IMG/VR virus record: IMGVR_UViG_3300022890_000011
Location: 1-64,000 of that record
From: a virus
Length of the DNA stretch: 64,000 nt
Reading direction: 5' to 3' (one strand)
Of the stretch, positions 7,562 to 63,230 are shown one piece after another. Under the pieces are notes generated by a model. It did no database searches, had not been told where the DNA came from, and saw nothing but the letters and a program-made list of their open reading frames with translations. The position numbers and the translations under genes were made by a program. The stretch's first letter is position 1. Each line of letters starts with the position of its first letter.

Positions 7562-8430
7562 ATAAAGGGATAAGCACAGATTTATCAACTTGGCAAGCGT
7601 ATTCAATGAAAGAATTCGAACACTTTTTCTTATCGAATAATTGTCCAGGAAGTAAAATAGATAATAATAAAAAAATGTATGCTCTAATTGATGTAGCTAA
7701 TGGAAATATGTCAAAGGTTAAAGAATTAACTAAGTTGTCTAAAAAGAAATATGGTGATAGATTAATACTCATGGTTGGTAATATAGCTAATCCAGAAACT
7801 TATAGAGTACTTTCGGAAGCTGGTGCGGATTATTGCCGTGTGGGCGTGGGAAATGGATCAAGCTGCTTGACAACTCAACAATTAGGAATTGGCTATGCGG
7901 CAGGGTCTTTAGTAAGTGAATGTTATGAAGAATATTGTAAATTAGATAATCCAGCTAAAATTGTAGCCGATGGTGGATTTAAAAAATATGCTGATATAAT
8001 TAAATCATTTTCAGTTGGCTCTACACACATTATGCTCGGTAGTATTTTCAATAAATCCTTAGAAAGTTGTGCTGATACGTTTGAAGAAAACCAATCTCAT
8101 GGTAATTGGAAAACTCCTGGTGAAAAAGTGGATCAATATTCTAAATTTATCAAAAATAAATTTAATAATGGTTCTAAATTTTATAAAAAATTTAGAGGGA
8201 TGTCAACTAAAGAAGTTCAGAAAGAACTCGGTAATGAAAAATTAAAAACAAGTGAGGGAATAGTTAAAATAAACCCAGTTGAATATACTATTGAAAGTTG
8301 GGTAGAAAATTTTGATTCATATTTAAAATCTGCTATGTCATATACCAATAAAAGAAATTTAAATGATTTTGTGGGTGAGGTAGAAATTATTAAAATAACT
8401 GATAATGCTTTCAGGAGATATAACAAATAA
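7562..8430 (+). pseudogene. GMP reductase/IMPDH-family protein, N-terminus missing
   Basis: IDVANG, MVGNIA, RVGVGNGSSCLT, IVADGG, MLGS, FRGMST, SEG, SAMSY; frame begins at the IS left end and lacks the expected N-terminal segment. Confidence 0.75.
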
Positions 8431-8696: not shown

Positions 8697-8970
8697 ATAT
8701 ATTGAATATATCGCTGAAAATAATGATAGTGTCATAAAATACGCTAATTATTTAGCTGAAGCTATTGATCCTAAAACTAATATAATACAAAGTTTTAAAT
8801 CTAAATCTGATAAAACCTTATTAAAAGATATTAAAAGGGGAATCATTTTCAAAATTGATGATGAATATATAATTGATCATAAAGGATATAATATATCCCT
8901 CGATGGAGATTTAAATATTCGATTAACTATGATAGAAAGAAATAATAAAATAAATAATATATTAAAATGA
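8689..8970 (+). CDS. Hypothetical protein with RxxKI C-terminal tag
   Basis: Ends ERNNKINNILK; ATGA overlap with thyA. Confidence 0.6.
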   Translation: MDEYIEYIAENNDSVIKYANYLAEAIDPKTNIIQSFKSKSDKTLLKDIKRGIIFKIDDEYIIDHKGYNISLDGDLNIRLTMIERNNKINNILK

Positions 8971-9806
8971 AAGAAATTATTAAAGCAGATAAGTATTATA
9001 TTGATAATTTGAATAAAATTATGAAAATAGGGTGTTTAGATGAAAATCCAAGACCTAAGTATAGAGATGGAACTCCAGCATATACCAAATTCATCACAGG
9101 TGTTTTCGAAGAATATGATATTTCTAAGGGGGAATTTCCTATTCCCACACTCCGAAACACAGCGGTTAAAACAGGAATCAAGGAAATTTTATGGATATAT
9201 CAAAAGCAGTCAAATTCCTTAGAAGATGCTCGTAATATGGGTATAAATTGGTGGAATGATTGGGACATTGGAAATAATTCTATCGGACAAAGATATGGAG
9301 CTACTGTTAAAAAATGGAACTTAATAGATGATTTACTAAAAACCTTAACAGATGATCCATTTTCTCGTAGACATATAATGAATATGTATCAATATTCCGA
9401 CCTCCAAGAAACTAAGGGACTTTTTCCATGTGCTTATGAAACTATTTGGTCTGTGGAAAAGAAAGGTAATGATTATATCTTAGATATGACACTTATCCAG
9501 AGAAGTTGTGATTTTTTAGTAGCTAAATTTATAAACCAAGCACAATATGTAGCCCTTCAAATGATGGTAGCTGGACATTTAGGTTATAAAATTGGTAATT
9601 TTAGACATTTGATACAAAATCTTCATATTTATGATAGACATAACGATGCGGTTGATGAACTACTTAATCGAACTCCAATAAATAAACAACCTACAATAGA
9701 ACTAATAGCCAATAAAAATTTTTATGATTATAAAATAGAAGATTTTAAAATCAAAAATATCGAAGGTATAATAAAAATCAAAAGCGATTTAGATTTGGGT
9801 ATCTAA
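8967..9806 (+). CDS. thyA: Thymidylate synthase
   Basis: EILW, GQRYG, SRRHI, LFPCA, QRSCD, NLHIYDRH. Confidence 0.95.
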   Translation: MKEIIKADKYYIDNLNKIMKIGCLDENPRPKYRDGTPAYTKFITGVFEEYDISKGEFPIPTLRNTAVKTGIKEILWIYQKQSNSLEDARNMGINWWNDWDIGNNSIGQRYGATVKKWNLIDDLLKTLTDDPFSRRHIMNMYQYSDLQETKGLFPCAYETIWSVEKKGNDYILDMTLIQRSCDFLVAKFINQAQYVALQMMVAGHLGYKIGNFRHLIQNLHIYDRHNDAVDELLNRTPINKQPTIELIANKNFYDYKIEDFKIKNIEGIIKIKSDLDLGI

Positions 9807-11059: not shown

Positions 11060-11586
11060 ATGATACAATTAAAAAGATATGAAAGTTTTAAAGCCTTATT
11101 GAAACCTAGTTTTAGTTATTGGTTTTCAATAAAAATAAATAGTGAAGGTGAAGCAAAAAAGGTCCTTGAAAAATTATTTGAAAATAATTATATTTGGCAA
11201 AGTAGTAGTTCCTTCAAAAGTGAAGATTTTATTCATCTTAATTCAAAATATAAAAAAAACTTATTAATGTGTTCAAACCATTCAAACCTTATAAATTACC
11301 TATGACAATGACTATTTATACTGGTGATGAATATAGTAATTTTGATAATTATGAATATAATATGTATGAAATAGAAATATGGTATAGAAAAAAAATGTGG
11401 GTAAGAGATTCATCTGGGCCATTAGTGCGATTAAATACTAAAAGTTCTAGGGAAAATAATATTATTAGTTTTGAATTAAAAAATCTTGAAAATAAAAATA
11501 TTAATGAAATATGTGACAAAGTAATGTCTATGAGTGATGAAGATATAAAGGCGCAAGTAGAAGCAAAAAAATTGAACTTATTATAA
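11060..11586 (+). CDS. Doubly tagged protein split by a -1 frameshift (ORFs 11060-11305 and 11269-11586)
   Basis: Leader MIQLKRYESF on the first ORF, tag EAKKLNLL on the second; in-phase A_AAA_AAC at 11254-11260 joins them. Confidence 0.6.
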
Positions 11587-11883
11587 ATGAATCATGTTAA
11601 ATTATATGAATCAGTGGGTAAAAAAGCAACATTTGTTTATGATGCAGAAGAACAATTTAGCTTAGTTATTTATATAGATAATAAATTATTAGGTATTTTT
11701 AGTGATACTTATATAAGTGATATGATGATACTAATGGATATGCTTGGTTATACTTGTGAATCACTTGAACTTGAAAATAAAGACTTAATTGATTGGTGGT
11801 TAAGTTTACCAAATAAAAAATGTCCGAAAACTCTCGATGAAATAAAAACTAGAATTGAAGGTAGTAAATTAGGTTTATTATAA
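11587..11883 (+). CDS. Doubly tagged hypothetical protein
   Basis: MNHVKLYES ... IEGSKLGLL. Confidence 0.75.
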   Translation: MNHVKLYESVGKKATFVYDAEEQFSLVIYIDNKLLGIFSDTYISDMMILMDMLGYTCESLELENKDLIDWWLSLPNKKCPKTLDEIKTRIEGSKLGLL

Positions 11884-12309
11884 CAATCCCATTTTCTTAG
11901 TCTCAATTTTTTCCCTTAATTCTTTTAAATCAACACTAATACAATTAGTTTCTACTGTGCCTAATTCCCAAGGATCACTAATAAAAAATTCTACAGAATT
12001 ACCTTTAACATTCAGTATTTCCATTCCTGGACTTGAAGACCAATCTTCATTTTCTTTATGTATATCAGAATCACTTACAATAACATAATCAATTTCATAA
12101 CCTATTTTTTCCCATAATGAATCATCTTTAAAAATATCTTCACCAGTAGCAAATAATTGTACATCATTAGCAACAACTTTAACTGATATTACATCGTCTC
12201 TTTTCAAAATTGAATAATCTTTTTTGAAAACATTATAAAAATCATCTGTTATAGGTATTAAACAAACACCTCTATCCTCACTTCTACAATACATTGTAGC
12301 TACATACAT
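11878..12309 (-). CDS. C-tagged hypothetical protein
   Basis: Ends IETKKMGLL; tail-to-tail with another GLL gene. Confidence 0.7.
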   Translation of the reverse strand: MYVATMYCRSEDRGVCLIPITDDFYNVFKKDYSILKRDDVISVKVVANDVQLFATGEDIFKDDSLWEKIGYEIDYVIVSDSDIHKENEDWSSSPGMEILNVKGNSVEFFISDPWELGTVETNCISVDLKELREKIETKKMGLL

Positions 12310-14107: not shown

Positions 14108-14872
14108 ATGAAATATCTCAAAACATTACACGAGTTTCTTGGCGCTGCACTAAATAAATCAAAAGAACAACAAACAGCATTCGCCCAAAAAGTATCAAAT
14201 AAAATATATGGTGATAATAAATTTAATGTCAAATATTTAGGCGAAGGTGGTCAAGGCACTTCATTTGATATTGGAAATAAAGTACTCAAATTAACAAAAG
14301 ATAAAAATGAAACCGGTAATGCTATTAAATCAATGAAACATAACTTCAAACATATAATTAAATACTATTCAGTTTATAAAATTAAAGTTCCTGATACTGT
14401 GCAAGATCAAATATTAAATAAATTCTACGTTTTAACAATGGATAAAATCAAAACATTCGAAAAAGGTCATATTATTCAAAAATTATTAAACTCATTTGCA
14501 TGTCCAGATGATAGTGGAAATATAAATTATAAACTTGCTAATTTTGGTATGACACAATATAAAGGTAAAAAAACTTCTGGTGAATGGAATTTTGAAAAAT
14601 TTAAAGAAATAAACACATTAGAAAAAGTATGTAAAAGAAAAGGATTAAATCCTGACGAAGTTAAAGGATTTCATGAACAATTAATAGCAATGATGAAAGA
14701 ATCAATGGAAAATAATATATTATTGGTTGATATGGATTATGGTAATGTTGGTATGCAAGGTAACACTTTAGTTGTATTTGATATGGGTGGAATGGGTGCT
14801 TGTCCAGAAAAAAAATCTATTCTTAAAGAATTAAAAATAATTACATTAGAAGACGAAAATTTATTTGAATAA
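14108..14872 (+). CDS. Protein-kinase-like protein with CTS-like leader
   Basis: LGEGGQG loop, VLKLT..E, DMDYGN catalytic-loop-like segment, VVFDMG; N-terminus MKYLKTLHEF. Confidence 0.7.
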   Translation: MKYLKTLHEFLGAALNKSKEQQTAFAQKVSNKIYGDNKFNVKYLGEGGQGTSFDIGNKVLKLTKDKNETGNAIKSMKHNFKHIIKYYSVYKIKVPDTVQDQILNKFYVLTMDKIKTFEKGHIIQKLLNSFACPDDSGNINYKLANFGMTQYKGKKTSGEWNFEKFKEINTLEKVCKRKGLNPDEVKGFHEQLIAMMKESMENNILLVDMDYGNVGMQGNTLVVFDMGGMGACPEKKSILKELKIITLEDENLFE

Positions 14873-14889: not shown

Positions 14890-14899
14890 TTAATATATA
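14890..14899 (+). promoter_or_regulatory. TTAATATATA putative late promoter heading the tagged array (one of ~16 copies)
   Basis: The same 10-mer recurs just upstream of gene starts on both strands. Confidence 0.6.
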
Positions 14900-14922
14900 A
14901 ACCTACAAAATAAATCTATAAT

Positions 14923-15192
14923 ATGAAACATTTAAAAAAATTCAACGAACGAGAAATTAAAGATAGAAGCGAAATGCCCGAACAAAAAAGACAAATTGAT
15001 CTTTCAGGACCAGACGGAAACGCTTTTGTTATTTTGGGAATAGCTCAAGATTTATGTAGACAATTAAAAGATATAAACCCAGAAAGATATGATTGGGATA
15101 AAATTAAAACTGAAATGGAATCAGGAGATTATGAAAATTTGATTAATGTTTTTGATAATTATTTTGGTGATTTTGTAGATTTATATAGATAA
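14923..15192 (+). CDS. Leader-tagged small phage protein (GPDGNAF family)
   Basis: MKHLKKFNE; IDLSGPDGNAFVILG...SGDYENL. Confidence 0.75.
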   Translation: MKHLKKFNEREIKDRSEMPEQKRQIDLSGPDGNAFVILGIAQDLCRQLKDINPERYDWDKIKTEMESGDYENLINVFDNYFGDFVDLYR

Positions 15193-15194
15193 TT

Positions 15195-15671
15195 ATGAAG
15201 AAAATTGATAAATATTTAGATTTTATTAAAAAAAATTACAAAGATATTGAAAAAAACAAATCTAAGATTAAAAATATTGTAAAAGATAATAATCTTATTA
15301 AGAATGATATTTTAAGCACTAAACAAAAAATAGAAAAATTGTTAATTTCAAAAATTGTAAAATTTAAAGAAAGAATGAAAAACGATCCAAATAATCCAAA
15401 TTATTTATGTATAGTTATTAAAAAACCATTTTCACATTATGATTATAAAGGATATATAGATGTTTCATATTTAAGGGAAACTGGTGGTTTTAGAATTTAT
15501 TTAAATTACGATAAAGGTAATAATTTACATTTATTGTCATTTAATAAAGATATGGAAGTCTATGATGAATTTAATGAAGATGAACAATTAGAATTAATAA
15601 CAAAATTATATAAATACTTTGATGATGATTTAGAACATTACATTGAAGGAAATAAATTGGGATTAATGTAA
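15195..15671 (+). CDS. Tagged-array protein
   Basis: MKKIDKYLDF ... IEGNKLGLM. Confidence 0.75.
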   Translation: MKKIDKYLDFIKKNYKDIEKNKSKIKNIVKDNNLIKNDILSTKQKIEKLLISKIVKFKERMKNDPNNPNYLCIVIKKPFSHYDYKGYIDVSYLRETGGFRIYLNYDKGNNLHLLSFNKDMEVYDEFNEDEQLELITKLYKYFDDDLEHYIEGNKLGLM

Positions 15672-16046
15672 ATGAAATATTTAAAAACATATGAAAAATC
15701 TAATTTTGATAATTATCTTGATGAATATCTAAGAACAATATCAAAAGAAAATGATTTTCTTTGCTCATATATTGCAAATAATTTCTATTTTACCATATAT
15801 ACAGAATTAATCTATTCTGAAAGTGATGTTGATTCATCAATTAATATAGGTGAATTAGGTGAATTAAAAAGAATCGAAGACAAATTTCAAAAATTTGTTG
15901 ATAAATATATACCAAAAGATGCATCATGTTCTATTGGTATTGATCCTGATACACCATCAATAGATATGACAATTAATTGTTCTAAAGAAGACTTTATTAC
16001 TAAAAATGCACAACATTTAGAAGCTTATAAAATGGGTTTATTATGA
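15672..16046 (+). CDS. Tagged-array protein
   Basis: MKYLKTYE ... LEAYKMGLL. Confidence 0.8.
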   Translation: MKYLKTYEKSNFDNYLDEYLRTISKENDFLCSYIANNFYFTIYTELIYSESDVDSSINIGELGELKRIEDKFQKFVDKYIPKDASCSIGIDPDTPSIDMTINCSKEDFITKNAQHLEAYKMGLL

Positions 16047-16681
16047 AATATTTAAAAACATATGAAAATTACGGCAATAACCAACAACCATTTTGGTTAT
16101 CAATTGATAGCTTGTTCATATCAGATGATATAGTAAAAAATTGTATGGCAAAAGAAAAAGATAGAAATAAATCATATAAAAAATATAATAAATATTGGGT
16201 TGATAAATATTTATTTGCTGAATTTGGTTCTAGAAAAATATATCCTTTTACTATTAACAGTGTAAGATGGGATAAAACACCATTTAAAACTGGTGAAGTA
16301 AAAGGTAATCAATCATATAGAATGGATATACGATTTTCTAAATGGCCAGGAGTAGATAATGAAGTAAAAGTAAATAAGGCAGGTACATTTACATATTTTC
16401 TAAATGGAATATCAGGTGATTCCGAAATGTTTGGTAAAAGTATGATTAATGGTACACGATGGGCAAATTATAATTTCATGTGTAAGTTATATCCAATATT
16501 CAGATATGTTAAAAACGGATATAAAAGACTAAAAGAAGGAGAATTGTTCTTAGATATAATATCAGAACTTTTAGACACTAACCCAGAAATGGCAATACAT
16601 GAAGTACCAGAAGAATTAAAAGATAAATATCCAGACTATTATAATACATTTACAAATGCAAATAAATTAGGATTAATATGA
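16043..16681 (+). CDS. Tagged-array protein
   Basis: MKYLKTYEN ... NANKLGLI. Confidence 0.8.
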   Translation: MKYLKTYENYGNNQQPFWLSIDSLFISDDIVKNCMAKEKDRNKSYKKYNKYWVDKYLFAEFGSRKIYPFTINSVRWDKTPFKTGEVKGNQSYRMDIRFSKWPGVDNEVKVNKAGTFTYFLNGISGDSEMFGKSMINGTRWANYNFMCKLYPIFRYVKNGYKRLKEGELFLDIISELLDTNPEMAIHEVPEELKDKYPDYYNTFTNANKLGLI

Positions 16682-17061
16682 TATATTTGAAGACATATGA
16701 AAATCATAAAGTTTATAAATATAATGTGATGACTACATTAGAAAATGAATTAAAAGATTTTATTGCAAGAAAAATATCATCTTTTGATGGTATTTTAGAA
16801 GTTGATGATGATATTGAAACAGTTGGAGAATTTAATCAAGACATTAAATATAATTATACAGCATATACGATTGGTGCGAACATAAACACAGATCCATTTC
16901 TTATTGAAGATAAAATTGAAGATTTTTTAAAGAATTTAAAACCCAGTAAATATACAATAACAGACAACGGATTTTGTTATACTATTACTTTTTTAATAAA
17001 AAGATCTGATATTAAATACCTAAAACATGTTATTGAAGGAAATAAATTAGGATTATTATGA
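16678..17061 (+). CDS. Tagged-array protein
   Basis: MIYLKTYEN ... IEGNKLGLL. Confidence 0.8.
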   Translation: MIYLKTYENHKVYKYNVMTTLENELKDFIARKISSFDGILEVDDDIETVGEFNQDIKYNYTAYTIGANINTDPFLIEDKIEDFLKNLKPSKYTITDNGFCYTITFLIKRSDIKYLKHVIEGNKLGLL

Positions 17062-17597
17062 AATATTTGAAGACATATTCAGAAAATAAATTAATTAAAG
17101 ATAATTTAAGTGGTGATGGTAAAATATTAAATTTAGCTGATTTAAATCTAAATGAATTACCTGAACTACCAAAAGGGTTAGAAATATTATATTGTTATAA
17201 TAATAAATTAACTAAATTACCTGAATTACCTGAAGGATTAAAAACATTAAAATGTGATAATAACAAATTAACCGAATTACCTGAATTACCTGAAGGATTA
17301 AAAAGATTATCTTGTCATAATAACCAATTAACTGAATTACCTGAATTACCAAAAGGATTAAAAGAATTATATTGTTATAATAACCAACTAACTGAATTAC
17401 CTGAATTACCTAAAGAATTAATACAATTATATTGTCGTAATAACCAACTAACTGAATTACCTGAATTACCTAAAGAATTAATACAATTATATTGTCGTAA
17501 TAACCAATTACCTTATTATAATTTAGATGGTTATTGGAAATGGTTTTGGAAAGAAAATCCAGATCTTTATAATGCAAATAAAATGGGATTATATTAA
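17058..17597 (+). CDS. Tagged leucine-rich-repeat protein (20-aa LPX-type)
   Basis: LTELPELPxGLxxLxCxNN repeats from a 60-bp tandem; MKYLKTYSE ... NANKMGLY. Confidence 0.88.
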   Translation: MKYLKTYSENKLIKDNLSGDGKILNLADLNLNELPELPKGLEILYCYNNKLTKLPELPEGLKTLKCDNNKLTELPELPEGLKRLSCHNNQLTELPELPKGLKELYCYNNQLTELPELPKELIQLYCRNNQLTELPELPKELIQLYCRNNQLPYYNLDGYWKWFWKENPDLYNANKMGLY

Positions 17598-18170
17598 ATG
17601 AAGTATTTAAAGACATATAATCGAATGATAAATGAGATTTCAGTTAATGAGAATCAATATGAAAATACTTTTATACTATATAAAGTGTCTCAATATATTA
17701 AAGATAAATTAGAATTATTTGAAGAAATGTTTAACGAATCAATTATAAATGAAGTTGATGATGATGAAGTTAAAGAACATTTAGATGAATATACTGAATA
17801 TATTGATGAACTAGATCATGATATTGATATTGATGAAATTAGTAGTAAAGAATTAGAAGAAATAATTATTCCAGATGATGTAAAATTCATACATTATGCT
17901 AATTATTCAAATAATTGGCAAATGGAAGAAGAAATGGTTGAACATATATCAGATTGTTTAGTTGATGACGATGTTATAGAATGGGATGATATAGATTACG
18001 AAAAAGATAATGATCCAATAAATGACTTAATTAGAGGTTATATTGGATTATTTGATTATTCTGATTATAAATTTGAAGAGAAATATTCAAATAAAGGAGT
18101 ATATCAAATGGTTAAAAATGACCCTGAATTTATGAAATATGTTGAAGCAAGTAAAATGGGACTATTATGA
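17598..18170 (+). CDS. Tagged-array acidic protein
   Basis: MKYLKTYN ... VEASKMGLL; very D/E rich. Confidence 0.8.
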   Translation: MKYLKTYNRMINEISVNENQYENTFILYKVSQYIKDKLELFEEMFNESIINEVDDDEVKEHLDEYTEYIDELDHDIDIDEISSKELEEIIIPDDVKFIHYANYSNNWQMEEEMVEHISDCLVDDDVIEWDDIDYEKDNDPINDLIRGYIGLFDYSDYKFEEKYSNKGVYQMVKNDPEFMKYVEASKMGLL

Positions 18171-18562
18171 AATATATTAAGAAATACAATGAAAAAGATT
18201 TTAGCGATTTTGAAAAATCAATTAATACATTCTTTAAAGATAAAAATATTATAATTGATAATTATAGAAATATAACAATTTTTATTAAAGATTGGGGTGA
18301 AGAAATGGGTGTTACATTTTGTTTAGAAACAAAGATATCTGATGATGATCATTATCCTTTGATTGCTGAAAACACAAATCAACTTACTGATATTATTCAT
18401 AAAGTTGATAAACTTACTAAATTATTACCAACTATATTAAACACTGAAATAAAAATAAGTTATGAAGATTCAGAAATATGGTTTGAATATACTGTAAATG
18501 TTGGTGAATTCATGGAAAAACACAAAGAATATTTTGACTCTGTTAAAATGGGATTATTATAA
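18167..18562 (+). CDS. Tagged-array protein
   Basis: MKYIKKYNE ... DSVKMGLL. Confidence 0.8.
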   Translation: MKYIKKYNEKDFSDFEKSINTFFKDKNIIIDNYRNITIFIKDWGEEMGVTFCLETKISDDDHYPLIAENTNQLTDIIHKVDKLTKLLPTILNTEIKISYEDSEIWFEYTVNVGEFMEKHKEYFDSVKMGLL

Positions 18563-18576
18563 AAATATATAAGATT

Positions 18577-18906
18577 ATGAATAAATATTTAAAAACATTT
18601 GAAGGTTTCCTTAAACCTAAAAATAAATATGCTGATTTAGAAAACCTTTCTAAAAGCAAATATGGAAACGGCAACGTAGATAAATCTACAGAAGAACGTA
18701 TACTAAATATTGACAATTTCAATAGATGGTTTAATGAAGAATGTAAAAGTTTTGGTGGAAAAGGTGAACCAGGCATATTTGGTAGAAGAGATAAACTATC
18801 TCAATCAGTTGTTGAAGATTATTTTTTTGATCAAGGCGTAGAATGTACTGAAACTGAAATAAATGGTTTTCATAAGAAAATTGAAGAAAATTGGATGAAT
18901 CTTTAA
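18577..18906 (+). CDS. Leader-tagged protein
   Basis: MNKYLKTFEGF. Confidence 0.75.
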   Translation: MNKYLKTFEGFLKPKNKYADLENLSKSKYGNGNVDKSTEERILNIDNFNRWFNEECKSFGGKGEPGIFGRRDKLSQSVVEDYFFDQGVECTETEINGFHKKIEENWMNL

Positions 18907-19322
18907 TGAAATATTTAAAGACATATAATGAAAAAAACGATGTTAAAATTCGAAGTAATGATGGTAAAACATTAGATTTATCTAATTTAGATTTAATTGA
19001 ATTACCTGAATTACCTAAAGGATTAAAATATTTATATTGTGAATATAACCAATTAACTAAATTACCTAAATTACCTGAAGAATTAGTAATATTATATTGT
19101 CATAATAACCAATTAACTAAATTACCTGAATTACCAAAAGGGTTAAAATATTTAGATTGTGATGGTAACAAATTAACTGAATTACCTGAATTACCAAAAG
19201 GGTTAAAATATTTAGATTGTGATGGTAACAAATTACCTTATGATAATTTAGAAGAATATTGGGAATGGTTTTGGAAGGAAAACCCAGACCTTCATAATGC
19301 AAATAAAATGGGACTATATTAA
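18906..19322 (+). CDS. Tagged leucine-rich-repeat protein (paralog 2)
   Basis: True start likely 18906 (TAATG overlap), MKYLKTYNE; LRRs; ends NANKMGLY. Confidence 0.88.
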   Translation: MKYLKTYNEKNDVKIRSNDGKTLDLSNLDLIELPELPKGLKYLYCEYNQLTKLPKLPEELVILYCHNNQLTKLPELPKGLKYLDCDGNKLTELPELPKGLKYLDCDGNKLPYDNLEEYWEWFWKENPDLHNANKMGLY

Positions 19323-19346
19323 ATGGGATTATGGTTAGCAGATAAT

Positions 19347-20073
19347 TTAGGACTTCTCTAATATTTTAACACATTTTTGATATATTCTTTCTCTATTTTC
19401 AGATTCAGGTAAATCTAAATACAATTTTCTTATATAATCTTTTTCTTTAATTAATTCTAAGGTTTTAGGGTAATTTATATCATATATCCAAGAAAATTGA
19501 ATACATTTAAAATCTAATACAGTTTTGAGTTTATTATAATCAACAACTTGTTCATTTTCAATACATTCAACAACATCATCAGATATTTCTAATATAGGTT
19601 CATAACCTGGCATTGTCATATTACCTTTATAATATTTAAAATAAACTCTAAATATGTCTAATTTATCAGCATCTCTTATAAGTTTGATAAATTTTAAAGT
19701 ATAATCATCATATTCTTTTGTTATTTTAATTTTATTGTGTTCAAATGTGCATATAGACATTAATTCTTTAAGAGAATTTTCAATATCTAAATTATTGATA
19801 ATAATTGAACCTTCTAAACCATGTTCAAAATTATCATCATCATGATATGTATTAAACTTTGATAATTGTTCAAATCTGGCTATATCATGATATAACCCTA
19901 TTAATTTAGCAATTTCAATTTCTTCTTTAGTAAAATTAAGTGATTTGGCTAAAATGACACAAATATCTGAAACTATTTTTAGAATGTTCTAATTTTAATT
20001 CTAGTTTATCTATATTGTTACCAAATTTAATATAATTATTAACATATTTATCAAAATGTTGGTATAAATTCAT
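19347..20073 (-). pseudogene. HD-domain phosphohydrolase with a 1-nt frameshift
   Basis: ATG 20073 MNLYQHFDKYV...LKLEHSK, then an extra A in the run at 19976-19980; continues IVSDIC...GLYHDIARFEQ...HG...EHNK...IRDADKLDIF. Confidence 0.75.
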
Positions 20074-20143: not shown

Positions 20144-21748
20144 ATGATTTTGTCACAATATGTTGAAGTTAAAATTTCTAATAACCAAATCAAATATTAT
20201 ATATTGAAAGGTTATGATGTAAAAGGAAACAATGAAATACGAAAAATAAAAGTATCAGATTTACCATTAAATAGTGGTCAAAAAATAGAAGTTCAATGTG
20301 ATATATGTAGTAATAAAAAAATTATTACAATGAATAGATATCAAATAAATACCAATAATGGTGAAAAATTATATACATGTAGTAGGAAATGTGCTGAATT
20401 TAAAAATAAACAAACATGTTTAGATAATTATGGAGTTGATAACATTTCTAAATTAGAAAGTGTAAAAATTAAAAAAATTGAAACATGTTTAGATAATTAT
20501 GGAGTTGAATTTCCACAACAATCTGAAAAAATATTTGAAAAAAGTAAAAATACAAAGAAATTAAAATATAATGATGAAAATTATAATAATCTTAAAAAAA
20601 GAATTCAAACATGTTTAAATAAATATGGTTGTGTATCACCTTCACAAAATACTAATATTAAAAAGAAAATGAAAATTAATCAATTTGAATCAAACAAAGA
20701 AAAAATATTAGAAAAATATAAAGATTTAAAAATAGTCAATTTTGATAAAGATGATAAATATGTGATTGAATGTGATTGTGATCAAAACCATACTTTCAAT
20801 ATTGAGTATAAATTACTATGGCAAAGAGTAAATGCTAAAACAACTTTATGTACAGTATGCAACGAAATCGATAGAAAACAGTCTGGGTTGGAAATAAACT
20901 TAATTAATTTTATTGAAAAAAACTATAATGGAGAAATTTTAATAGGTGATAGAGATGTTATTAAACCACTAGAATTAGATATTTATCTACCAGATTTAAA
21001 ATTGGCTTTTGAATTCAATGGGTTATATTGGCATAATGAATTAAATAAAGAAAACAATTATCATTTAAATAAAACAGAAAATTGCGTTGAAAAAGACACA
21101 CAACTTATTCATATTTGGGAAGATGATTGGTTATATAAACAACATATAGTAAAGTCAATGATATTAAACAAATTAGGTAATACTCCAACTAAAATATATG
21201 CTAGAAAATGTAAAATTGAAGTCATTCAAGATAACAAATTGATAAGAAATTTTTTGGATGAAAATCACCTTCAAGGTTTTGTTGGTTCAAGTATTAAATT
21301 AGGTCTTTATTATGAAAGAAATCTTGTAAGTTTAATGACTTTTGGAAAATCAAGGAAATCAATGGGCACAACTGCAAAAGAAGGCGATTATGAATTAATA
21401 AGATTTTGTAATAAGTTAAATACCAATGTTATTGGTGGTGCTGGTAAATTATTTAAACATTTCACTAGAAATTATTCTTTTAATGAAATAACATCATATG
21501 CTGACAGATCACATTCAAACGGTAAATTGTATGAAAATTTAGGATTTGAATTTGTTTCAAAAACTAAACCTAATTATTATTACATAATAGAAGGTTTAAG
21601 AAAATATAGGTTTAGTTTTAGAAAAGATATATTAATAAAGGAAGGTTTTGATCCAAATAAAAGTGAACATGAAATAATGTTGGGTAGAGGTATTTATAGA
21701 ATATATAATAGTGGAAATCTAAAATATAAATATAAGAAAGTGATTTAA
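20144..21748 (+). CDS. Putative homing endonuclease (Zn motifs, TCLxxYGV repeats, PD-(D/E)xK domain, GNAT-like C-terminus)
   Basis: CDIC, CTVC, ELDIYLPDLKLAFEFNGLYWH, IHIWEDDW, YELIRFC, SYADRS..GKLYENLGF. Confidence 0.7.
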   Translation: MILSQYVEVKISNNQIKYYILKGYDVKGNNEIRKIKVSDLPLNSGQKIEVQCDICSNKKIITMNRYQINTNNGEKLYTCSRKCAEFKNKQTCLDNYGVDNISKLESVKIKKIETCLDNYGVEFPQQSEKIFEKSKNTKKLKYNDENYNNLKKRIQTCLNKYGCVSPSQNTNIKKKMKINQFESNKEKILEKYKDLKIVNFDKDDKYVIECDCDQNHTFNIEYKLLWQRVNAKTTLCTVCNEIDRKQSGLEINLINFIEKNYNGEILIGDRDVIKPLELDIYLPDLKLAFEFNGLYWHNELNKENNYHLNKTENCVEKDTQLIHIWEDDWLYKQHIVKSMILNKLGNTPTKIYARKCKIEVIQDNKLIRNFLDENHLQGFVGSSIKLGLYYERNLVSLMTFGKSRKSMGTTAKEGDYELIRFCNKLNTNVIGGAGKLFKHFTRNYSFNEITSYADRSHSNGKLYENLGFEFVSKTKPNYYYIIEGLRKYRFSFRKDILIKEGFDPNKSEHEIMLGRGIYRIYNSGNLKYKYKKVI

Positions 21749-23214
21749 AAATCACTTTCTAATTCTTTTAATTCTTTCTTTAATTCTTCCCATTCAGAAT
21801 GTTTTTGCATCATAATTTTCTTAAAACTTTTACGATCTGCATAAACTTCACCCATAACTTGGTTTACAACACCAATTTCATTTTTAAATACACTTCCATT
21901 TAATAAAACAATATCATCTTTTTCAATTTGTAGTTGATGACCATTAAATAACGTGTAATTTTTTCCTTTAACTTTTTGGCCTTTGTAACTATCAGCAGAT
22001 ATGTTAAATTGTCGAATTGTCATTGGATAAAGTGAGGCGAAATCATAACAACATGTCCATTTTGACATTCCTCTAACAGGTGGTAAAACAAAACCACCAG
22101 ACACACTACCTTCTTTTGCTTTACTTCCATCATCAAAATTATCATCTCTACATAGAACAATATTTTTTTGATCTTTAAGTTTATTTCTTAAAATACCTTC
22201 TGTTATAGCTAACGTAGAGAAACCATTTTGAACAGTTACTTTTGATTTGGTCGCCATCGCATAAAGAATATCAATATATTTTTGTTTTTCGTGTATTAAT
22301 TGAACTAGTACACTATCGACAACATTATAATAAATAAAATCTCTTTTATTCGTATTATATAAATGTTTAAGATCTCCTGTATATGCAACTTTACCAAACT
22401 CTTGACCTAGTATTGCTCCAGCAACAAAATCAAGTGCATTGCTTTCTTTTACTTTTACTGATGTGTCCCATTTTGCATAAAGTTCCATATAATCAACAAT
22501 AATCTTATGAGCTGGCATTTCTGAATAGTCATTTTGTTTCCATGATTCTTTTAATTTGCCTGTTAATGATGCTACTGTAGGATCTATACCGATTTTTCTC
22601 GCTCTATTTACAAGGAATACCCAGTCATAATTTATGAAATTCCATCCTGATATACAAGCCATTACTGGTACATATACTTTAAAAAAATTGAGTAAAAGTT
22701 CATATTCATTATTATAACAAATATATTTGAAACCCCATTTTTTATCAAATTTTTTCCCATATTTAACATTTAAATCATTTTCAATTGAACTTATTTCTTT
22801 TTTAGTGAGTGGGTCTATTCCCAAAACCAATGCTTTATCTTTATTAACGATTGAGATTGAAAGAATTGCTGATTCTGCTAAATGAGGTTCTGGTTTCTTA
22901 TCTAATATTTCGTTTTCTATGTCAACAAAAAATATATTTGGCTCTTTATAATCAAATAATATTGATTGGTCTTCACTGGGAAGAGAACCTAAGAAATCAT
23001 AAACAGCATATTTATTTGGATATTTTGTGTATATTTCTTTAACTGATTTACCATTCCACATTACATATTTTCCAGACTTCTCTTTATCATGGTCTGATGT
23101 TGGTATAAATTTTGTAGGTCTTCCCCACGGGAAGTATTTTAAACGGACATTACCTGCATCATTGATATAGCTACATAACAACTTCGAATTTTTAAATTCA
23201 TAGTCTATAAGCAT
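21745..23214 (-). CDS. Family-B DNA polymerase, N-terminal subunit (exonuclease + motif A) of a split polymerase
   Basis: Exo I VDIENE, Exo II GWNFINYDW, Exo III YNVVD, GGFV, motif A YDFASLYP...NIS; ends after fingers helix DRKSFKK with no KxxxNSxYG or DTDS. Confidence 0.88.
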   Translation of the reverse strand: MLIDYEFKNSKLLCSYINDAGNVRLKYFPWGRPTKFIPTSDHDKEKSGKYVMWNGKSVKEIYTKYPNKYAVYDFLGSLPSEDQSILFDYKEPNIFFVDIENEILDKKPEPHLAESAILSISIVNKDKALVLGIDPLTKKEISSIENDLNVKYGKKFDKKWGFKYICYNNEYELLLNFFKVYVPVMACISGWNFINYDWVFLVNRARKIGIDPTVASLTGKLKESWKQNDYSEMPAHKIIVDYMELYAKWDTSVKVKESNALDFVAGAILGQEFGKVAYTGDLKHLYNTNKRDFIYYNVVDSVLVQLIHEKQKYIDILYAMATKSKVTVQNGFSTLAITEGILRNKLKDQKNIVLCRDDNFDDGSKAKEGSVSGGFVLPPVRGMSKWTCCYDFASLYPMTIRQFNISADSYKGQKVKGKNYTLFNGHQLQIEKDDIVLLNGSVFKNEIGVVNQVMGEVYADRKSFKKIMMQKHSEWEELKKELKELESDF

Positions 23215-27719: not shown

Positions 27720-28195
27720 TATAATCTATCTAATTTTCTTTTTCTATCAAATTTTTCATAATCTTTAGATAGTTCTTTATCAAAAAAATCTTTATTTATT
27801 TTTATAAGTTCTAGATCTGATTCTAATTTATTTTTGGTAAGTTCTTCTAGAACTTTAGTTTTTGCAATATCTAGGGCTTCATTTTCAAATCTTTGTAATA
27901 GATGAGATTCTATATATTCAATTATAATAGAATCTTTATCTAATTTTTCATATTTTGTATTATTATAATTATAATAATAAATATATGATTCTTTAAATAA
28001 ATAATAGTAAACTGAAAAGTGTGAGGGATCACCAACATATTTAAAAATTTCTTTATTTAGTATTTCTCTTTCATTTGAATATACTTCTGATTGAATATAG
28101 ATATCAGAACCTGTTACATCTATATAAGTGTGTTTTGAAGTATCTCCTGGATATAAGTATTTATGTAATTTTATTACCCTTTCTCTTTTTGTCAT
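27719..28195 (-). CDS. Hypothetical protein with RKxKL C-tag
   Basis: Ends DRKRKLDRL. Confidence 0.65.
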   Translation of the reverse strand: MTKRERVIKLHKYLYPGDTSKHTYIDVTGSDIYIQSEVYSNEREILNKEIFKYVGDPSHFSVYYYLFKESYIYYYNYNNTKYEKLDKDSIIIEYIESHLLQRFENEALDIAKTKVLEELTKNKLESDLELIKINKDFFDKELSKDYEKFDRKRKLDRL

Positions 28196-34471: not shown

Positions 34472-34846
34472 TTATTTCTCATTATCTTTTGTTATATCTT
34501 CTTGTTCTTCTTTTGCAGTACCAATTATTTTATCAAAGTCTTCGATATCTTGTTCAAGTTCATCCATTTTAGGTTCAATATCTTCAGAATCTATACCTTT
34601 TTGAAAGTCTTGTTTAATATCTTTTGTTGTGTCTTCGATTTTTTTACCTTGATCTTCAATTAAATCTGTACTATTTTTTAATTGATCTAATTTATCAGAA
34701 GTTGTATCTGGTTCAACATTTTCAATTTCTTCTGTTTCTTTTGATTTAGATTTTTGTTCTTCTTGATGTTTTTGAATTTTATTAGATAATTCACTTTTGA
34801 ATTCATCTGCGCTTTGTTCATTTAAGAATTCTATATAGGTTTTCAT
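34472..34846 (-). CDS. Coiled-coil protein with T4-CTS-like leader
   Basis: MKTYIEFLNE. Confidence 0.75.
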   Translation of the reverse strand: MKTYIEFLNEQSADEFKSELSNKIQKHQEEQKSKSKETEEIENVEPDTTSDKLDQLKNSTDLIEDQGKKIEDTTKDIKQDFQKGIDSEDIEPKMDELEQDIEDFDKIIGTAKEEQEDITKDNEK

Positions 34847-40937: not shown

Positions 40938-41390
40938 ATGAAATATCTTAAAGATTATAATTCATGGGATAATAAATTATTAAAAGAATTTTACGAAGAA
41001 ACAGATAATTTAGAAGAACTTAAAAAAAGATGTGAATATTTAATTGATAAGTTTGGAAAACCCTCACTTGGTGTACCTGATAAGGATTATTTAAGTATTT
41101 TGATACCATTATCAAATCATGAAATTATTGATTTTTTGTGTGATATTGAAAATATTAAATCTTTTTCTCTTGAAATTTTAAGACCACCTATTACACTAGA
41201 TTATAAATTTAAAATATATTTTTTAAATGAAAATAACCCTAACGATAACTATGAAATATTTGCAATTTCAAGAGAAAAAGATTTAATTTTAATTGATTCA
41301 TCATATGAACAATATAAAATTATTGAAAATATTATTTTATTTGGAGATGTTGAACAAAGAATAACTACAAATCAAATGGGTTTACTTTAA
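40938..41390 (+). CDS. Doubly tagged hypothetical protein
   Basis: True start 40938 MKYLKDYNSW; ends TTNQMGLL. Confidence 0.75.
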   Translation: MKYLKDYNSWDNKLLKEFYEETDNLEELKKRCEYLIDKFGKPSLGVPDKDYLSILIPLSNHEIIDFLCDIENIKSFSLEILRPPITLDYKFKIYFLNENNPNDNYEIFAISREKDLILIDSSYEQYKIIENIILFGDVEQRITTNQMGLL

Positions 41391-41647
41391 CCTGTATTCG
41401 AAACTGTAGAACCAATAGGATTTTTACTTAATAACCCTTTAGTATATTCACCGAAAGTATTAACTGGTGGTATTTCTTTATCATCTTCTAAATTATTATG
41501 AATCTGTTTTCTTAATATTTCAAATTCTTCTGGTGTTAAATCTCTATTTAGTAATTCCATTTGTTTATCAACTGTGTGTTGAAGTATATCTTCATCAGAA
41601 GGTGTTATTTGAGTTTCAAATTGTTTATATGTTTTTATATGTTTCAT
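41387..41647 (-). CDS. Leader-tagged protein
   Basis: MKHIKTYKQFE. Confidence 0.7.
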   Translation of the reverse strand: MKHIKTYKQFETQITPSDEDILQHTVDKQMELLNRDLTPEEFEILRKQIHNNLEDDKEIPPVNTFGEYTKGLLSKNPIGSTVSNTG

Positions 41648-42057
41648 AATATTCCTAGATTAATTCCGTTTTTCGCCCATTCTAAATTTTTTAGAAGTGG
41701 TGTTAAAATTGTTTTTTTAAATTTTTTGATTTTTATTAAACTTTTCCCATCATAACCCCCAGAAGAAAAATTCATAGATGTTGGATTATTGAAATCTTTT
41801 TCTAACTTAGATAAATATTTTAGATTTTCTGTTAAAAATTCATCCAATCTTTTATAATCAGTGTGACTTTTTTTTATATTAGGTATCCATTCTATAAATG
41901 GTGCAGAATCAGACTCATCATCACGAAATATATAATATAAATTTGGGAAATCACCGCCAATATCGCCAATAAAAAAACAAAAATGTTTATGATAATATGA
42001 TTCTACCATTGGTAGTTTGTTAAATTCAAAATTTTCGTATGTTTTTAAATATTTCAT
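41644..42057 (-). CDS. Doubly tagged protein
   Basis: MKYLKTYENFE ... NGINLGIL. Confidence 0.75.
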   Translation of the reverse strand: MKYLKTYENFEFNKLPMVESYYHKHFCFFIGDIGGDFPNLYYIFRDDESDSAPFIEWIPNIKKSHTDYKRLDEFLTENLKYLSKLEKDFNNPTSMNFSSGGYDGKSLIKIKKFKKTILTPLLKNLEWAKNGINLGIL

Positions 42058-45772: not shown

Positions 45773-46243
45773 ATGATTATAAATTTTAATAATTTTATAA
45801 ATGAAAAATTAGATATTTCTGATATTGAATTATATAATACTACTATGTATGATATTGAAACTGAAATTACAAATTTAGAATATGAAATTGAAGAATTAAA
45901 AACAAAAAAAGAAGAATTCAAGGATCTACATAAGAAATTATTTTTAGAAATTATAGATCTAACAGTTAAATATGGTGAAAAATTAGATTCAGATTGTTAT
46001 AATTTAAAAATTAAAGGTATAGGAGAGTTTGATAAAATAACAATATATTTAGAAAAAGAAACAAATATTGAGGATTCTTATATAGAATTAGAAACATTTA
46101 AAAATAATAAACCTGGACCTAGTGCATCAGGTAGTGTTTATGATTTTGAAGTAGATGGTCTTGAAATTTTATATAAATATTTTTGCAATTTACCAGAAGA
46201 CTTAACACCTTATTTAGAAGCAGGAAAAATGGGACTAATGTAA
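45773..46243 (+). CDS. Doubly tagged protein
   Basis: MIINFNNFINE ... LEAGKMGLM. Confidence 0.75.
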   Translation: MIINFNNFINEKLDISDIELYNTTMYDIETEITNLEYEIEELKTKKEEFKDLHKKLFLEIIDLTVKYGEKLDSDCYNLKIKGIGEFDKITIYLEKETNIEDSYIELETFKNNKPGPSASGSVYDFEVDGLEILYKYFCNLPEDLTPYLEAGKMGLM

Positions 46244-61581: not shown

Positions 61582-61626
61582 GTTTTATATTTTTAATATA
61601 TAATGGTGTTAAAAATAAAATTACTG

Positions 61627-62817
61627 ATGAAACATTTAAAAACATATGATGATTTAATAAATGAATCAATATTTGATTTTGGTTTTCTTAAAGGTGTTAA
61701 AGATTTTGTTTCAAATTTTTTTAGTGGAAAAGCAAATGCTAAAGAGATTACTATTAATTTAACAAATGCATTGAGAAATTATCAAAAAGAAGTATTACAC
61801 AATCCTTATAAACTTGATAGATTATCTATTAATAGTATGTTGAAAAAAATTAAAGATATAGTTGGTGAAGAATTATTAATTGATCTTAATTTAGATTCAT
61901 TTTTCAGGGGACTTTATAGTGTATCTGTTTTAAAAGGAGATAGACATGAAAATATTATAGATTATTTCAATTCTTATATTGATTTATTATCACAAAGAGT
62001 ACAAAAATTATATAAGAAAAAGAAAGATGTTGATTATGAAGAAGAAGAATTTGAAGAAGTAAAAAAATTGAAGAAAAAAGCCATTCAAAAAATGACTAAT
62101 AAAGAGTTTAGAAAGAAAAAAACTCCTCTTCAAATTGAATTATTAAAATTACAAAATTGGTTATATAGAAAAGATAAAAGATTAGCTGTTCTTTTTGAAG
62201 GTAGAGATGCTGCAGGAAAAGGTTCAGCAATCAAGACCATTATTGAATTTCTAGACCCAAAATTATTTAAAGTGGCTACGTTTGGTATACCAACAGAAGA
62301 AGAAAAATTAAATTGGTTTGAAAGATATACTAAGAAATTACCAAAACCTGGTAAAATATCATTTTTTGATAGAAGTTGGTATAATAGAGCAGTAAATGAC
62401 CCTGTTATGGGTTATTGTACAAAAGAACAATATAATGAATTTATAGAAGAAGTTATTCCATTTGAAGATCAATTAATTGATAATGGATTATATTTATTTA
62501 AATTTTGGTTCTCAGTGAGCCAAGAAACTCAAGAATTAAGGTTTCAAATTAGACAAGCAAATCCATTAAAGACCTGGAAATTTAGTGAAAATGATTTATT
62601 AACTATGAATAAATGGGATAAATTTACAGCATATAAAGAGAGAATGTTTTTACAAACTTCTACAGAAAAATCACCTTGGGTAATTGTTGATTCTAATGAT
62701 AAGAAATTGGCTCAAATTAACATAATGAAATATATTTTAGAACAGATACCATATAAAAATAAAGATGTTAAAAGAGTTGGTCATCCATTACCAGAAATCG
62801 TAATACCTTTGAAATGA
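61627..62817 (+). CDS. ppk2: Polyphosphate kinase 2 with an N-terminal leader-tagged extension
   Basis: LQIELLKLQ, FEGRDAAGKG, FDRSWYNRA, KFWFSVS, WKFS; start MKHLKTYDDLINE at 61627. Confidence 0.93.
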   Translation: MKHLKTYDDLINESIFDFGFLKGVKDFVSNFFSGKANAKEITINLTNALRNYQKEVLHNPYKLDRLSINSMLKKIKDIVGEELLIDLNLDSFFRGLYSVSVLKGDRHENIIDYFNSYIDLLSQRVQKLYKKKKDVDYEEEEFEEVKKLKKKAIQKMTNKEFRKKKTPLQIELLKLQNWLYRKDKRLAVLFEGRDAAGKGSAIKTIIEFLDPKLFKVATFGIPTEEEKLNWFERYTKKLPKPGKISFFDRSWYNRAVNDPVMGYCTKEQYNEFIEEVIPFEDQLIDNGLYLFKFWFSVSQETQELRFQIRQANPLKTWKFSENDLLTMNKWDKFTAYKERMFLQTSTEKSPWVIVDSNDKKLAQINIMKYILEQIPYKNKDVKRVGHPLPEIVIPLK

Positions 62818-63230
62818 AATATTTAAAAAAATTTGAAGATATTATTACTACTACTTATGATAATATTGATATACCTATTGATTATACAGATGATATATTA
62901 TTTGATTTAGATTTTGAAACATTTAAATCAGTTTTAAATCTTATAAATATTGGTAGGCCACTTAATGCTTTAAAAAGTATTAAACATAAATTAGATTATG
63001 GTTTAAAACAATGCAAAGATTTGATGGGGAGAATGTGTTCTCTATTAGGTTATGATAGATTTAATATTAAATCTAATGAAAATGATCAATTTAATTATCA
63101 AGATGAAATAATAGATAAATATCCAGAATTAATATCATTAATTAGTAATTCAGAAAGATTTAATTTATTACCAGAAATAAGAGAAATATATGATGATTTA
63201 ATTCAAGGAAGTGAGTTGGGATTATTGTAA
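62814..63230 (+). CDS. Doubly tagged protein with an L7/L12-CTD-like motif
   Basis: MKYLKKFE; LNALKSIK...YGLKQCKDLM; ends IQGSELGLL. Confidence 0.72.
   Translation: MKYLKKFEDIITTTYDNIDIPIDYTDDILFDLDFETFKSVLNLINIGRPLNALKSIKHKLDYGLKQCKDLMGRMCSLLGYDRFNIKSNENDQFNYQDEIIDKYPELISLISNSERFNLLPEIREIYDDLIQGSELGLL

Follow-up and report, generated by a model that had tools for sequence, protein, structure and literature searches.

The window analysed here covers the first 64 kb of IMGVR_UViG_3300022890_000011, a linear virus record of 166.6 kb in IMG/VR (labelled G000), and carries at positions 14923-19322 an array of ten genes whose products share a short amino-terminal leader and a short carboxy-terminal tail. 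Comparisons with related phages show that homologous protein bodies bear the tail of their own lineage (KMGLL, KFNL or KYNL), and that this tail has changed in concert while the leader stayed constant. The pairing of a lineage-specific carboxy-terminal tag (C-tag) with a constant amino-terminal tag (N-tag) is the most informative fact about the array, and was missed by an earlier note that described it, from the letters of the window, as a modular cargo system with two address labels. We propose that the array could be a late-expressed operon, made up of accessory genes of a megaphage of Bacteroidota, and that its products would carry two independent, portable address peptides.

ORF calling identified ten consecutive open reading frames (ORFs) on the plus strand of the array, abutting or coupled as the earlier note had described. 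They are joined by ATGA overlaps (at 16043, 16678, 17058 and 18167), a TAATG overlap (at 18906) and, at the remaining junctions, TAAATG abutments (15672 and 17598) or gaps of 2-14 nt. The tail K[ML]GL[LMIY] ends eight of the ten ORFs, all except those at 14923 and 18577. Nine start with M-K-(Y/H)-(L/I)-K-(T/K)-(Y/F) or a one-residue variant of it (MIYLKTYE, MNKYLKTFE); the exception is 15195 (MKKIDKYLDF). Both counts agree with the eight KMGLL-type ends and the near-universal leader reported before. The first gene (14923..15192, 89 aa) carries the N-tag MKHLKKFNE and no C-tag. The second (15195..15671, 158 aa) ends in YIEGNKLGLM behind an amino terminus that is only loosely leader-like, and has a weak homolog (32% identity) in a related phage, G006. 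Both tags are present in the products of the next six genes: 15672..16046 (124 aa, MKYLKTYE ... AYKMGLL), 16043..16681 (212 aa, alpha+beta fold), 16678..17061 (127 aa, MIYLKTYE ... GNKLGLL, an ORFan), 17058..17597 (179 aa, 20-residue leucine-rich repeats (LRRs) of the IpaH/YopM type), 17598..18170 (190 aa, acidic body) and 18167..18562 (131 aa, MKYIKKYNE ... SVKMGLL). Gene 9 (18577..18906, 109 aa) starts MNKYLKTFE, ends EENWMNL without a C-tag and has its own ATATATAA box 12 nt upstream, and gene 10 (18906..19322, 138 aa from its ATG) is an LRR paralog of gene 6 with both tags. A promoter-like box on the plus strand (TTTAATATATAA, 14890..14900), probably of late type, lies 30 nt before the first ATG; a scan of the array for sigma-70 promoters and terminators gave signals at or below shuffle level. 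The spare ATGGGATTA that had been noticed past the last stop is there (19323-19331) and opens a plus-strand mini-ORF of 12 codons (MGLWLADNLGLL-stop, 19323..19361) that ends NLGLL-stop. The mini-ORF is possibly the relic of a lost cassette, a suggestion that we make with low confidence because it overlaps the 3' end of a convergent gene, 19347-19760(-).

Scanning the whole record and its relatives, as the earlier note had proposed, revealed tags far beyond the array. In the 166.6-kb record the N-tag is found on about 28 genes and the C-tag on 27-30, with 18 genes bearing both. Based on its 242 genes, amino-acid composition predicts 0.16 C-tags by chance against the 27 observed, and 0.005 N-tags against the 23 that a strict pattern recovers. 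A scan of IMG/VR for the stop-start junction recovered the same pair of tags in other contigs of 24-27% GC. The main one, G006 (a 348-kb record of the phage that G007 and G008 represent as well), has 94 ORFs with the C-tag, 46 with the N-tag, 26 with both and 68 with the tail only. Together with G001, a fragment related to G000 by its polymerase, the ranges are 23-28 (G000), 36-46 (G006) and 38 (G001) N-tagged genes and 27-30, 92-94 and 71 C-tagged genes, respectively, and a metagenome scan yielded 18 further loci with at least two tails in several sample sets. The leader logo reads M, K, Y/H, L, K, T, Y/F, E/N, E/N. The tail logo, built from the 94 G006 copies, extends over positions -14 to -1: D/E, L/I, x, x, hydrophobic, hydrophobic, E/N/Q, A/G/S, N/K, K, M/L, G, L, L/I. 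Glutamate occupies its logo position in 42 of the 94 tails and a small residue follows in 89; position -5 is lysine in 69 and glutamine in 6.

The tails diverge between lineages that the polymerase groups together. The family-B DNA polymerase of G000 is 58% identical to those of G001-G003 (214-256-kb IMG/VR fragments, estimated to be 30-36% complete), 54% identical to that of the 735-kb 'uncultured phage' LR756501 and 41-42% identical to those of G004 and G005 (IMGVR_UViG_3300002143_000235, 313 kb). In the closest of these relatives the KMGLL pattern occurs only at background level, because G001 genes end in KFN(L/I) instead: de novo inspection of gene ends found (A/S/T)-N-K-F-N-(L/I) at the end of 71 of its 447 genes. 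Yet 38 G001 genes start with the same leader, MKY(I/L)K..(Y/F)E, and 35 of these carry the KFN tail, compared to 18 leader-tail pairs among 28 leaders in G000. The swap can be followed on individual bodies. The product of 16043-16681 ends NANKLGLI and its 37%-identical homolog in G001 (96588) ends NVNKFNI; LRR proteins end NANKMGLY in G000 and AKQFNL or AKKFNI in G001; and a match between G006 and G001 pairs a protein ending SSKLGLL in the former with one ending EAEKFNI in the latter. An exhaustive, profile-free search with the 16043 body returned one fold, mostly with the same leader, and three kinds of tail: K-Y-N-(L/I) in about 15 clusters, K-F-N-L in 3 and x-(M/L/I)-G-L-(L/F) in 4. A 32-kb contig of the KYNL type has its tail on five neighbouring genes downstream of thyA, like the arrays of G000 and G001. 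Bodies and tags can also part company. The LRR body of G006 occurs with an RKYKIERIRK tail and with no tail as well, so that the combinations seen for LRR bodies are KMGLY, KQFNL, RKYKIERIRK and none; leader and tail are separable in enzymes with the N-tag only (PPK2) and in the many C-only proteins of G006. Further out, G005 lacks the C-tail and has another N-tag, MIT(T/S)IN(E/D)(F/Y), on about 20 proteins, and LR756501 uses neither tail. On some members of the 16043 family M-I-T-K-F-K-(I/L)-(F/Y)-E replaces MKYLKTYE. The rewriting of the tail on dozens of proteins around a fixed leader is what a tag-reader pair predicts, and argues that leader and tail have different readers.

The bodies between the tags are mostly unrelated, as the earlier note had claimed. 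We compared them after trimming 10 residues from the amino terminus and 10-12 from the carboxy terminus. Within G000 only the four LRR genes matched each other, and 111 of the 151 tagged proteins pooled from G000 and G006 were BLAST singletons, the largest cluster being the LRR family with 13 members. Because most trimmed bodies are singletons, the tagged genes are not one paralog family. The ORFan at 16678-17061 matched only itself in a search against 5.8 billion proteins, and Pfam assigned ankyrin repeats to 5 of the 150 non-LRR C-tagged proteins of three genomes, with few single hits otherwise. The LRR genes at 17058 and 18906 match Pfam LRR_4 (E = 7e-19 and 3e-21) with a 20-residue LPX-type repeat, LTELPELPxGLxxLxCxNNx. 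Effectors of the IpaH/SspH type have the same repeats; unlike them, the phage proteins lack the carboxy-terminal NEL ubiquitin-ligase domain and end about 25 residues past the last repeat. The AlphaFold2 (AF2) model of 17058 is a solenoid (predicted local distance difference test (pLDDT) 93) with residues 1-6 disordered and the C-tag divided between the last part of the cap helix and a tail of 4 residues. About 30 protein clusters with lineage-specific C-tags make up the family of the 16043-16681 body, which was modelled as an alpha+beta protein (pLDDT 82). Its fold relatives were sought with Foldseek (E > 0.3) and VIA-align (best Z 3.4) and no convincing PDB match was returned; on these models the body has no nameable known fold, nor is a novel fold established. 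A 142-aa protein, P0132, joins an amino-terminal part that looks PadR-type-like by eye to the last 56 residues of the 16043 body. The shared segment is 75% identical and includes the tail (NATKLGLI). P0132 thus appears to be a natural chimera, which suggests that tail-bearing ends get recombined onto other proteins.

Do the conserved ends matter as peptides or as DNA? The earlier note had seen in each junction a recurring block of about 40 bp that could serve the shuffling of cassettes, and tandem duplication, gene conversion or a DNA or RNA role (as recombination junction, in translational coupling or as a Shine-Dalgarno-like GGA) could produce shared ends that address nothing. Several features would fit such a by-product. 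Many junctions are ATGA or TAATG overlaps, and past the array lies the possible relic of a tag. Two codons vary less than genome usage would lead one to expect: GGA encodes Gly(-3) in 66 of 92 tags, where 26 would be expected, and ACA encodes Thr6 in 26 of 29, where 15 would be expected. The GGA lies 5-9 nt upstream of the ATG that follows, and some genes of these phages are preceded by AGGAGG. However, only these two codons stand out. Lysine and leucine codons within both tags follow genome-wide usage and vary freely, so the block is not fixed even though its GGA and ACA are unusually uniform, and amino-acid replacements are conservative (K/R, L/I/V, Y/H/F, M/L). The tail is retained on array-final genes, isolated genes and convergent gene ends such as 11587/11878, the pattern of 14 residues reaches back far beyond the junction, the bodies are not paralogous, and the same bodies have a different tail in sister lineages. 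The synonymous codon variation, the conservative swaps and the persistence of the tail where no gene follows show selection on the tag peptides, and we regard ends without an address function as very unlikely. The GGA and ACA uniformity may leave room for a secondary RNA role, a Shine-Dalgarno-like GGA for the coupled start, or for shared ancestry of the tag DNA. The two-label cargo system proposed earlier is thus partly supported: the portable and separable termini, with peptide-level selection on mostly unrelated bodies, bear out the labels, and the N-tag fits a head-loading label.

The leader resembles the capsid-targeting sequence (CTS) of phage T4. The internal proteins of T4 share only a 10-residue CTS, MKTYQEFIAE (PMC8442874), that docks them on the scaffolding core and is then cut off by gp21 (PMC8442874; PMC3012670). 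Targeting depends mainly on residues 4 and 7 (PMC9026906). The leader MKYLKTYE matches the T4 signal in position and length; it begins with MK, its residues 3/4 and 7 are aromatic or hydrophobic, and its end is acidic. In both AF2 models, whose bodies are unrelated (the 17058 LRR protein and 16043), it is a low-confidence free segment before the fold, and it is borne by unrelated proteins that include the PPK2 enzyme. As in the T4 proteins IPI-III and Alt, a leader of about 10 residues is the sole common part of diverse, fast-evolving and non-essential proteins. In T4 the internal-protein genes are polymorphic among T-even phages, several encode anti-defence factors, and they are expressed in time for prohead assembly; a gp23-type capsid occurs in the G000 clade too. 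PF07068 (gp23) scored over the cut-off in G004 and G005, and a weak match to PF03420 (S77; 24.9 bits, below the cut-off) was found in G005, so that the wider clade appears to have T4-type heads.

The expression signals of leader-bearing genes are consistent with this resemblance. A box, TAATATATA(A/G) (ATATATA(A/G)), heads N-tagged operons, and ATATATA(A/G) also lies 25-36 nt before the ORFs for the gp23-like major capsid protein (MCP) and the S77-like protein of G004/G005 and precedes a tail-fibre-like gene (51478). The T4 late promoter reads TATAAATA, of which the box is reminiscent; its timing class is probably late. Counting per transcription unit, so that genes of one operon are not counted repeatedly, the box heads 13 of 16 leader-containing units in G000, 18 of 26 in G006 and 15 of 18 in G001, and 41-47% of other units (p = 0.02, 0.006 and 0.0008, respectively). 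The leader is thus linked to the late-type box. In the form TTTAATATATA(A/G) the box occurs at 14890-14900, 34847-34880 and 51440-51477 of the window and at about 35 other sites, at preferred distances of 25-36 nt and 10-14 nt to the ATG; the shorter spacing would give leaderless or near-leaderless mRNAs. By its resemblance to the T4 signal the leader is best filed as a CTS-like tag, with putative membership in the CTS group, and we consider it somewhat probable that MKYLKTYE loads proteins into the head.

The tail has the shape of a docking peptide in both AF2 models, in which the predicted end of the terminal helix is followed by three or four hydrophobic residues. Combining the two tags, we propose that the 8-9-residue leader M-K-(Y/H)-(L/I)-K-(T/K)-(Y/F)-(E/N), free ahead of the fold, would dock a protein into the head core, and that the protein would be packaged in the head and delivered with the DNA. 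The tail of about 14 residues, with an aromatic residue at its fifth place, would be a docking peptide for one common, lineage-specific partner that does not belong to the conserved head shell and is most likely encountered inside the infected cell. The bodies, which differ from gene to gene (LRR, ankyrin, ORFans), could be binders or effectors that reach this one hub, either pre-made, by injection, or made on arrival. We favour a partner outside the head shell because the tail is found on leader-less proteins, is missing from leader-bearing enzymes and is swapped in concert. A tail that docks on a hub in the infected cell, with the leader adding delivery by injection, is slightly favoured as a possible reading, because it better accounts for genes with a tail only, for enzymes without one, for bodies of the LRR and ankyrin type and for a tail that follows the lineage, and perhaps the host. 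The model as a whole, a CTS-type leader plus tail docking on a common partner, is plausible while falling a little short of probable; packaging, binding and the location of the tail reader are read from sequences. Mutual binding of leader and tail was dropped, as the tail changes against an unchanging leader and the LRR solenoid has its two termini at opposite ends.

Several observations weigh against this model. The phage is uncultured and known from its sequence, from which we infer packaging. Searches for the MCP, the portal and the S77 protease in G000 (58% complete by CheckV estimate) and G006 found none; both are half-genomes, in which the absence of a gene means little, and T4-type head assembly is therefore deduced from G004/G005, whose polymerases are only 41-42% identical. 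MKYLKTYE lacks the (L/I)-x-E cleavage context of T4, is coupled to a short C-tag that T4 does not have (the carboxy-terminal propeptide of Alt is 63 residues long and unshared), and has dozens of carriers compared to about four in T4. A second class of leaders is nearer to the T4 CTS (MKTYIEFLNE, MKKYTNFLLE, MKNYNNFINE, MKKFSNFIKE, MKKFDQFLNE) and counts 10 genes in G000, 16 in G006 and 8 in G001, few with a C-tail; in the window its sites are 34472-34846(-) (MKTYIEFLNE), 3450-4670(-), 36237-36989(-), 42411-42980(-) and 45773-46243. MKYLKTYE may for this reason be read by something else. The box, being rich in A and T, is a noisy signal, with a sense to antisense ratio of only about 2:1 and of about 1:1 in G001. 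As for the tail, some tail-only arrays (G006, 218-225 kb) stand behind TAnnTTTG boxes and AGGAGG sites, but the association of tail-only genes with the host-type TAnnTTTG promoters is significant per gene (odds ratio 2.7) and not per transcription unit, which weakens the argument for a tail function outside head assembly. The 35/38 coupling in G001 fits a shared virion route equally well, and tails on some 15-18% of genes would make a cargo or effector set without precedent.

The closest competitor to a hub in the infected cell is that both tags act in head assembly, as a pair of propeptides or anchors by which cargo would be held to the scaffold core or inner shell, in which case the C-only proteins would be cargo too. 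The tight coupling of leader and tail (35/38 in G001, 18/28 in G000) and the late-type box before most C-only units of G000 and G001 are expected from such a route. Moreover, the tails of G000 and G006 often have two hydrophobic residues and E followed by A/G/S, like a T4-type (L/I)-x-E cleavage site, and T4 Alt is itself processed at both termini (PMC5694885), losing 6 amino-terminal and 63 carboxy-terminal residues to the prohead protease (PMC5694885; PMC9026906). Fast-evolving scaffold proteins could explain the lineage-specific tails. The glutamate, however, is not conserved in the KFNL lineage, where N, Q, A, S, D or T replaces it, leader-bearing enzymes lack the tail, and the 68 tail-only ORFs of G006 include arrays behind TAnnTTTG and AGGAGG. 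Short carboxy-terminal peptides on unrelated cargo are known from encapsulin cargo loading and from the scaffold tails of herpesviruses and P22, which dock on the inner face of an HK97-fold shell; here, no capsid gene was found in the tag-bearing records, the tail is also on seemingly early-expressed proteins, and it differs between close phages although capsid proteins are conserved. We judge a head anchor or propeptide somewhat unlikely.

Turning from the head to the infected cell, the tail could instead be a tether or degron for an AAA+ protease, with the bodies as adaptors for ClpCP or an FtsH-like enzyme or as substrates degraded on schedule. The phage encodes a ClpC that is 77% identical to Bacteroidota ClpC, starts exactly after Clp_N, so without the adaptor-binding N-domain, and retains the IGF loop (G000 113199-115205; L112:9199-11205), as well as a canonical ClpP and a soluble FtsH-type M41 protein (G000 128107-128766 and 108229-110508, respectively). 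G006 has a second, divergent ClpC that likewise lacks the N-domain, and no ClpC was found in the fragments without the KMGLL tag (G001, G002, G004 and G005). The recognisable bodies are protein-binding repeats (LRR, ankyrin), and a variable binding module with a constant short terminal peptide is the design of AAA+ tethers and degrons such as the ClpX-binding tail of SspB, ssrA and Gp53, an adaptor-like protein of phage SPO1 for ClpC(P) (PMC6873191). Yet the tails share no sequence similarity with known tethers, 15-18% of genes is far beyond any adaptor set, and a degron on late-made, packaged proteins would be counter-productive. The ClpC genes of the two phages share only 43-48% identity, with one 77% identical to a cellular ClpC, and may be separate captures; G001 has its own tail type and no ClpC in the 36% of its genome recovered; and the case for an AAA+ hub would come from co-occurrence in half-genomes. 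A predicted complex of full-length host-type Bacteroidota ClpC with a tagged LRR protein scored 0.01 in a run without controls, which speaks neither for nor against it. We hold an AAA+ tether to be improbable. Mimicry of the ClpP-docking IGF loop by the tail was dropped, as K-F-N-L of the sister lineage has no glycine. A similarly low probability attaches to a bolder version of the hub, a proteome-wide address code in which the 15-18% of genes with tails would form a library of target binders (LRR, ankyrin, novel folds) for one hub, encoded by phage or host and perhaps an AAA+ protease, to which they would come pre-packed by way of a CTS-like leader or after synthesis on arrival, and the tail would be rewritten in concert (KMGLL, KFNL, KYNL) whenever hub or host changes; were it true, it would amount to a programmable system for targeted degradation or host takeover. 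Bacterial polymerases and MutS carry carboxy-terminal clamp motifs of the QL(S/D/G)LF type, and K-(M/L)-G-L-(L/F) resembles QLGLF/QMSLL-type motifs; a sliding-clamp-binding tail is nonetheless the least probable of these explanations, as only 6 of the 94 tails have Gln at the first position, the sister lineage has K-F-N-L, Pfam detected neither gp45-type nor beta-type clamps in G000 and G006, and some 100 clamp binders per genome are implausible. By analogy only, Dot/Icm effectors and the ankyrin/PRANC proteins of poxviruses show that hundreds of unrelated or repeat proteins can share a short carboxy-terminal signal or motif; those belong to bacteria and eukaryotic viruses and serve known machines, and no secretion system or ubiquitin pathway applies here.

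We did not find described in the literature a short C-tag that is common to a sixth of the genes, coupled to a leader and rewritten between sister lineages. The earlier note's statement that no two-tag design was known needs qualification, since T4 Alt, processed at both ends, is a partial precedent. The documented coupling of the tags, their differing evolution, the tail swap on homologous bodies and the link of the leader to a box shared with capsid genes are new. Megaphage genomes consist mostly of small ORFans without assigned roles, and the paired terminal peptides sort a sixth of them into directly testable classes. A constant leader next to a lineage-specific tail also offers a natural covariation experiment by which the readers could be traced. 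Should the leader function as a CTS, tens of different proteins would be packed, among them LRR and ankyrin binders and enzymes, far beyond what T4 does, and the tags would offer a direct means of bringing foreign proteins into large capsids. Docking of effectors on a common hub through the tail, if it occurs, would represent a mode of host takeover not described for phages.

Tags, or variants of them, are present at every site outside the array where the earlier note had placed them (11060-11883, 40938, 41644, 45773 and 62814). Upstream of the array, 11302-11586 ends KKLNLL and is followed by a dispersed dual-tag gene (11587..11883, +; MNHVKLYE ... GSKLGLL) that converges with a C-tagged gene (11878..12309, -; ETKKMGLL). 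The stops of these two genes overlap at 11878-11883, so both keep the tail with nothing downstream. Next to the array, 14108..14872 (+) encodes an N-tag-only protein of 254 aa (MKYLKTLHE), labelled kinase-like before, for which Pfam gave zero hits. Further downstream are a C-tagged gene (40938..41390, +; TNQMGLL) with the amino terminus MKYLKDYN, an N-tagged gene (41644..42057, -) that ends in a variant of the C-tag (NGINLGIL), and a C-tagged gene (45773..46243, +; EAGKMGLM) with the T4-CTS-like start MIINFNNFINE. The PPK2 enzyme (61603..62817, +) has the N-tag MKHLKTYDD and no C-tag, and a 160-residue amino-terminal extension besides the leader; its stop is overlapped by a dual-tag gene (62814..63230, +; MKYLKKFE ... 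GSELGLL). Outside the window, a stretch resembling the C-tag (AAAGATGGGACTATTATGA) directly precedes an ORF of 43 aa with an N-tag, at G000 155331-155476(-). The tail in this stretch may have been put out of frame by a one-base insertion, as in a decaying or mis-assembled cassette.

The host of G000 is very likely a member of the Bacteroidota, because TAnnTTTG -7 boxes of the Bacteroidota type precede genes in the clade and because the phage ClpC is 73-77% identical to ClpC of metagenome-assembled genomes (MAGs) of Bacteroidales and Marinilabiliales. The record has 25% GC, with no tRNA genes counted in the window. Among the large ORFs of the window, the PHROGs and Pfam profiles recognised hardly any structural genes, and the array DNA had zero matches among 50,697 phage records. 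No close relatives of the flanking gene 14108-14872 were found in IMG/VR; the sole strain-level comparison at hand is that of G008, which is 100% identical to part of G006. LRR proteins of G000 and G006 are 67-74% identical and have the tail in common, and core genes are 43-54% identical. TnpB/OrfB genes of the IS200/605 type lie at G000 165429-166595 (L115:1429-2595) and at 5783-6982 of the window, and a TnpB of G000 shares 100% identity with one of G006 over 388 aa, which suggests recent exchange or a shared host pool. The similarity of the LRR proteins and the identity of the TnpB despite the divergence of core genes likewise suggest that G000 and G006 draw on a common host pool. The next relatives of the TnpB are 76-83% identical, on short contigs binned into unrelated MAGs, probably by mis-binning.

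Other genes of the record include the polymerase ORF itself (21745-23214(-), 489 aa), which matches the amino-terminal half of T4-type polymerases and thus indicates a split polymerase, a form kept in every relative found. Auxiliary enzymes in the window are a GMP-reductase/IMPDH-type protein and a thymidylate synthase (7606-8430 and 8967-9806), and the 178-aa product of 28195-28731(-) may, by eye, resemble Tpt1/KptA RNA 2'-phosphotransferases. A conserved family of about 235 aa without a Pfam hit occurs at G000 116916-117629 and 163213-163917, at G001 101806-103213 and at L228:4252-4953. Its motifs are YHxSP, HP(D/E)R(I/V)Y and G(Y/F)(Y/F)T, it adjoins thymidylate synthase in relatives, and its members frequently start with a CTS-like leader (MKTYENFIEK in G006).

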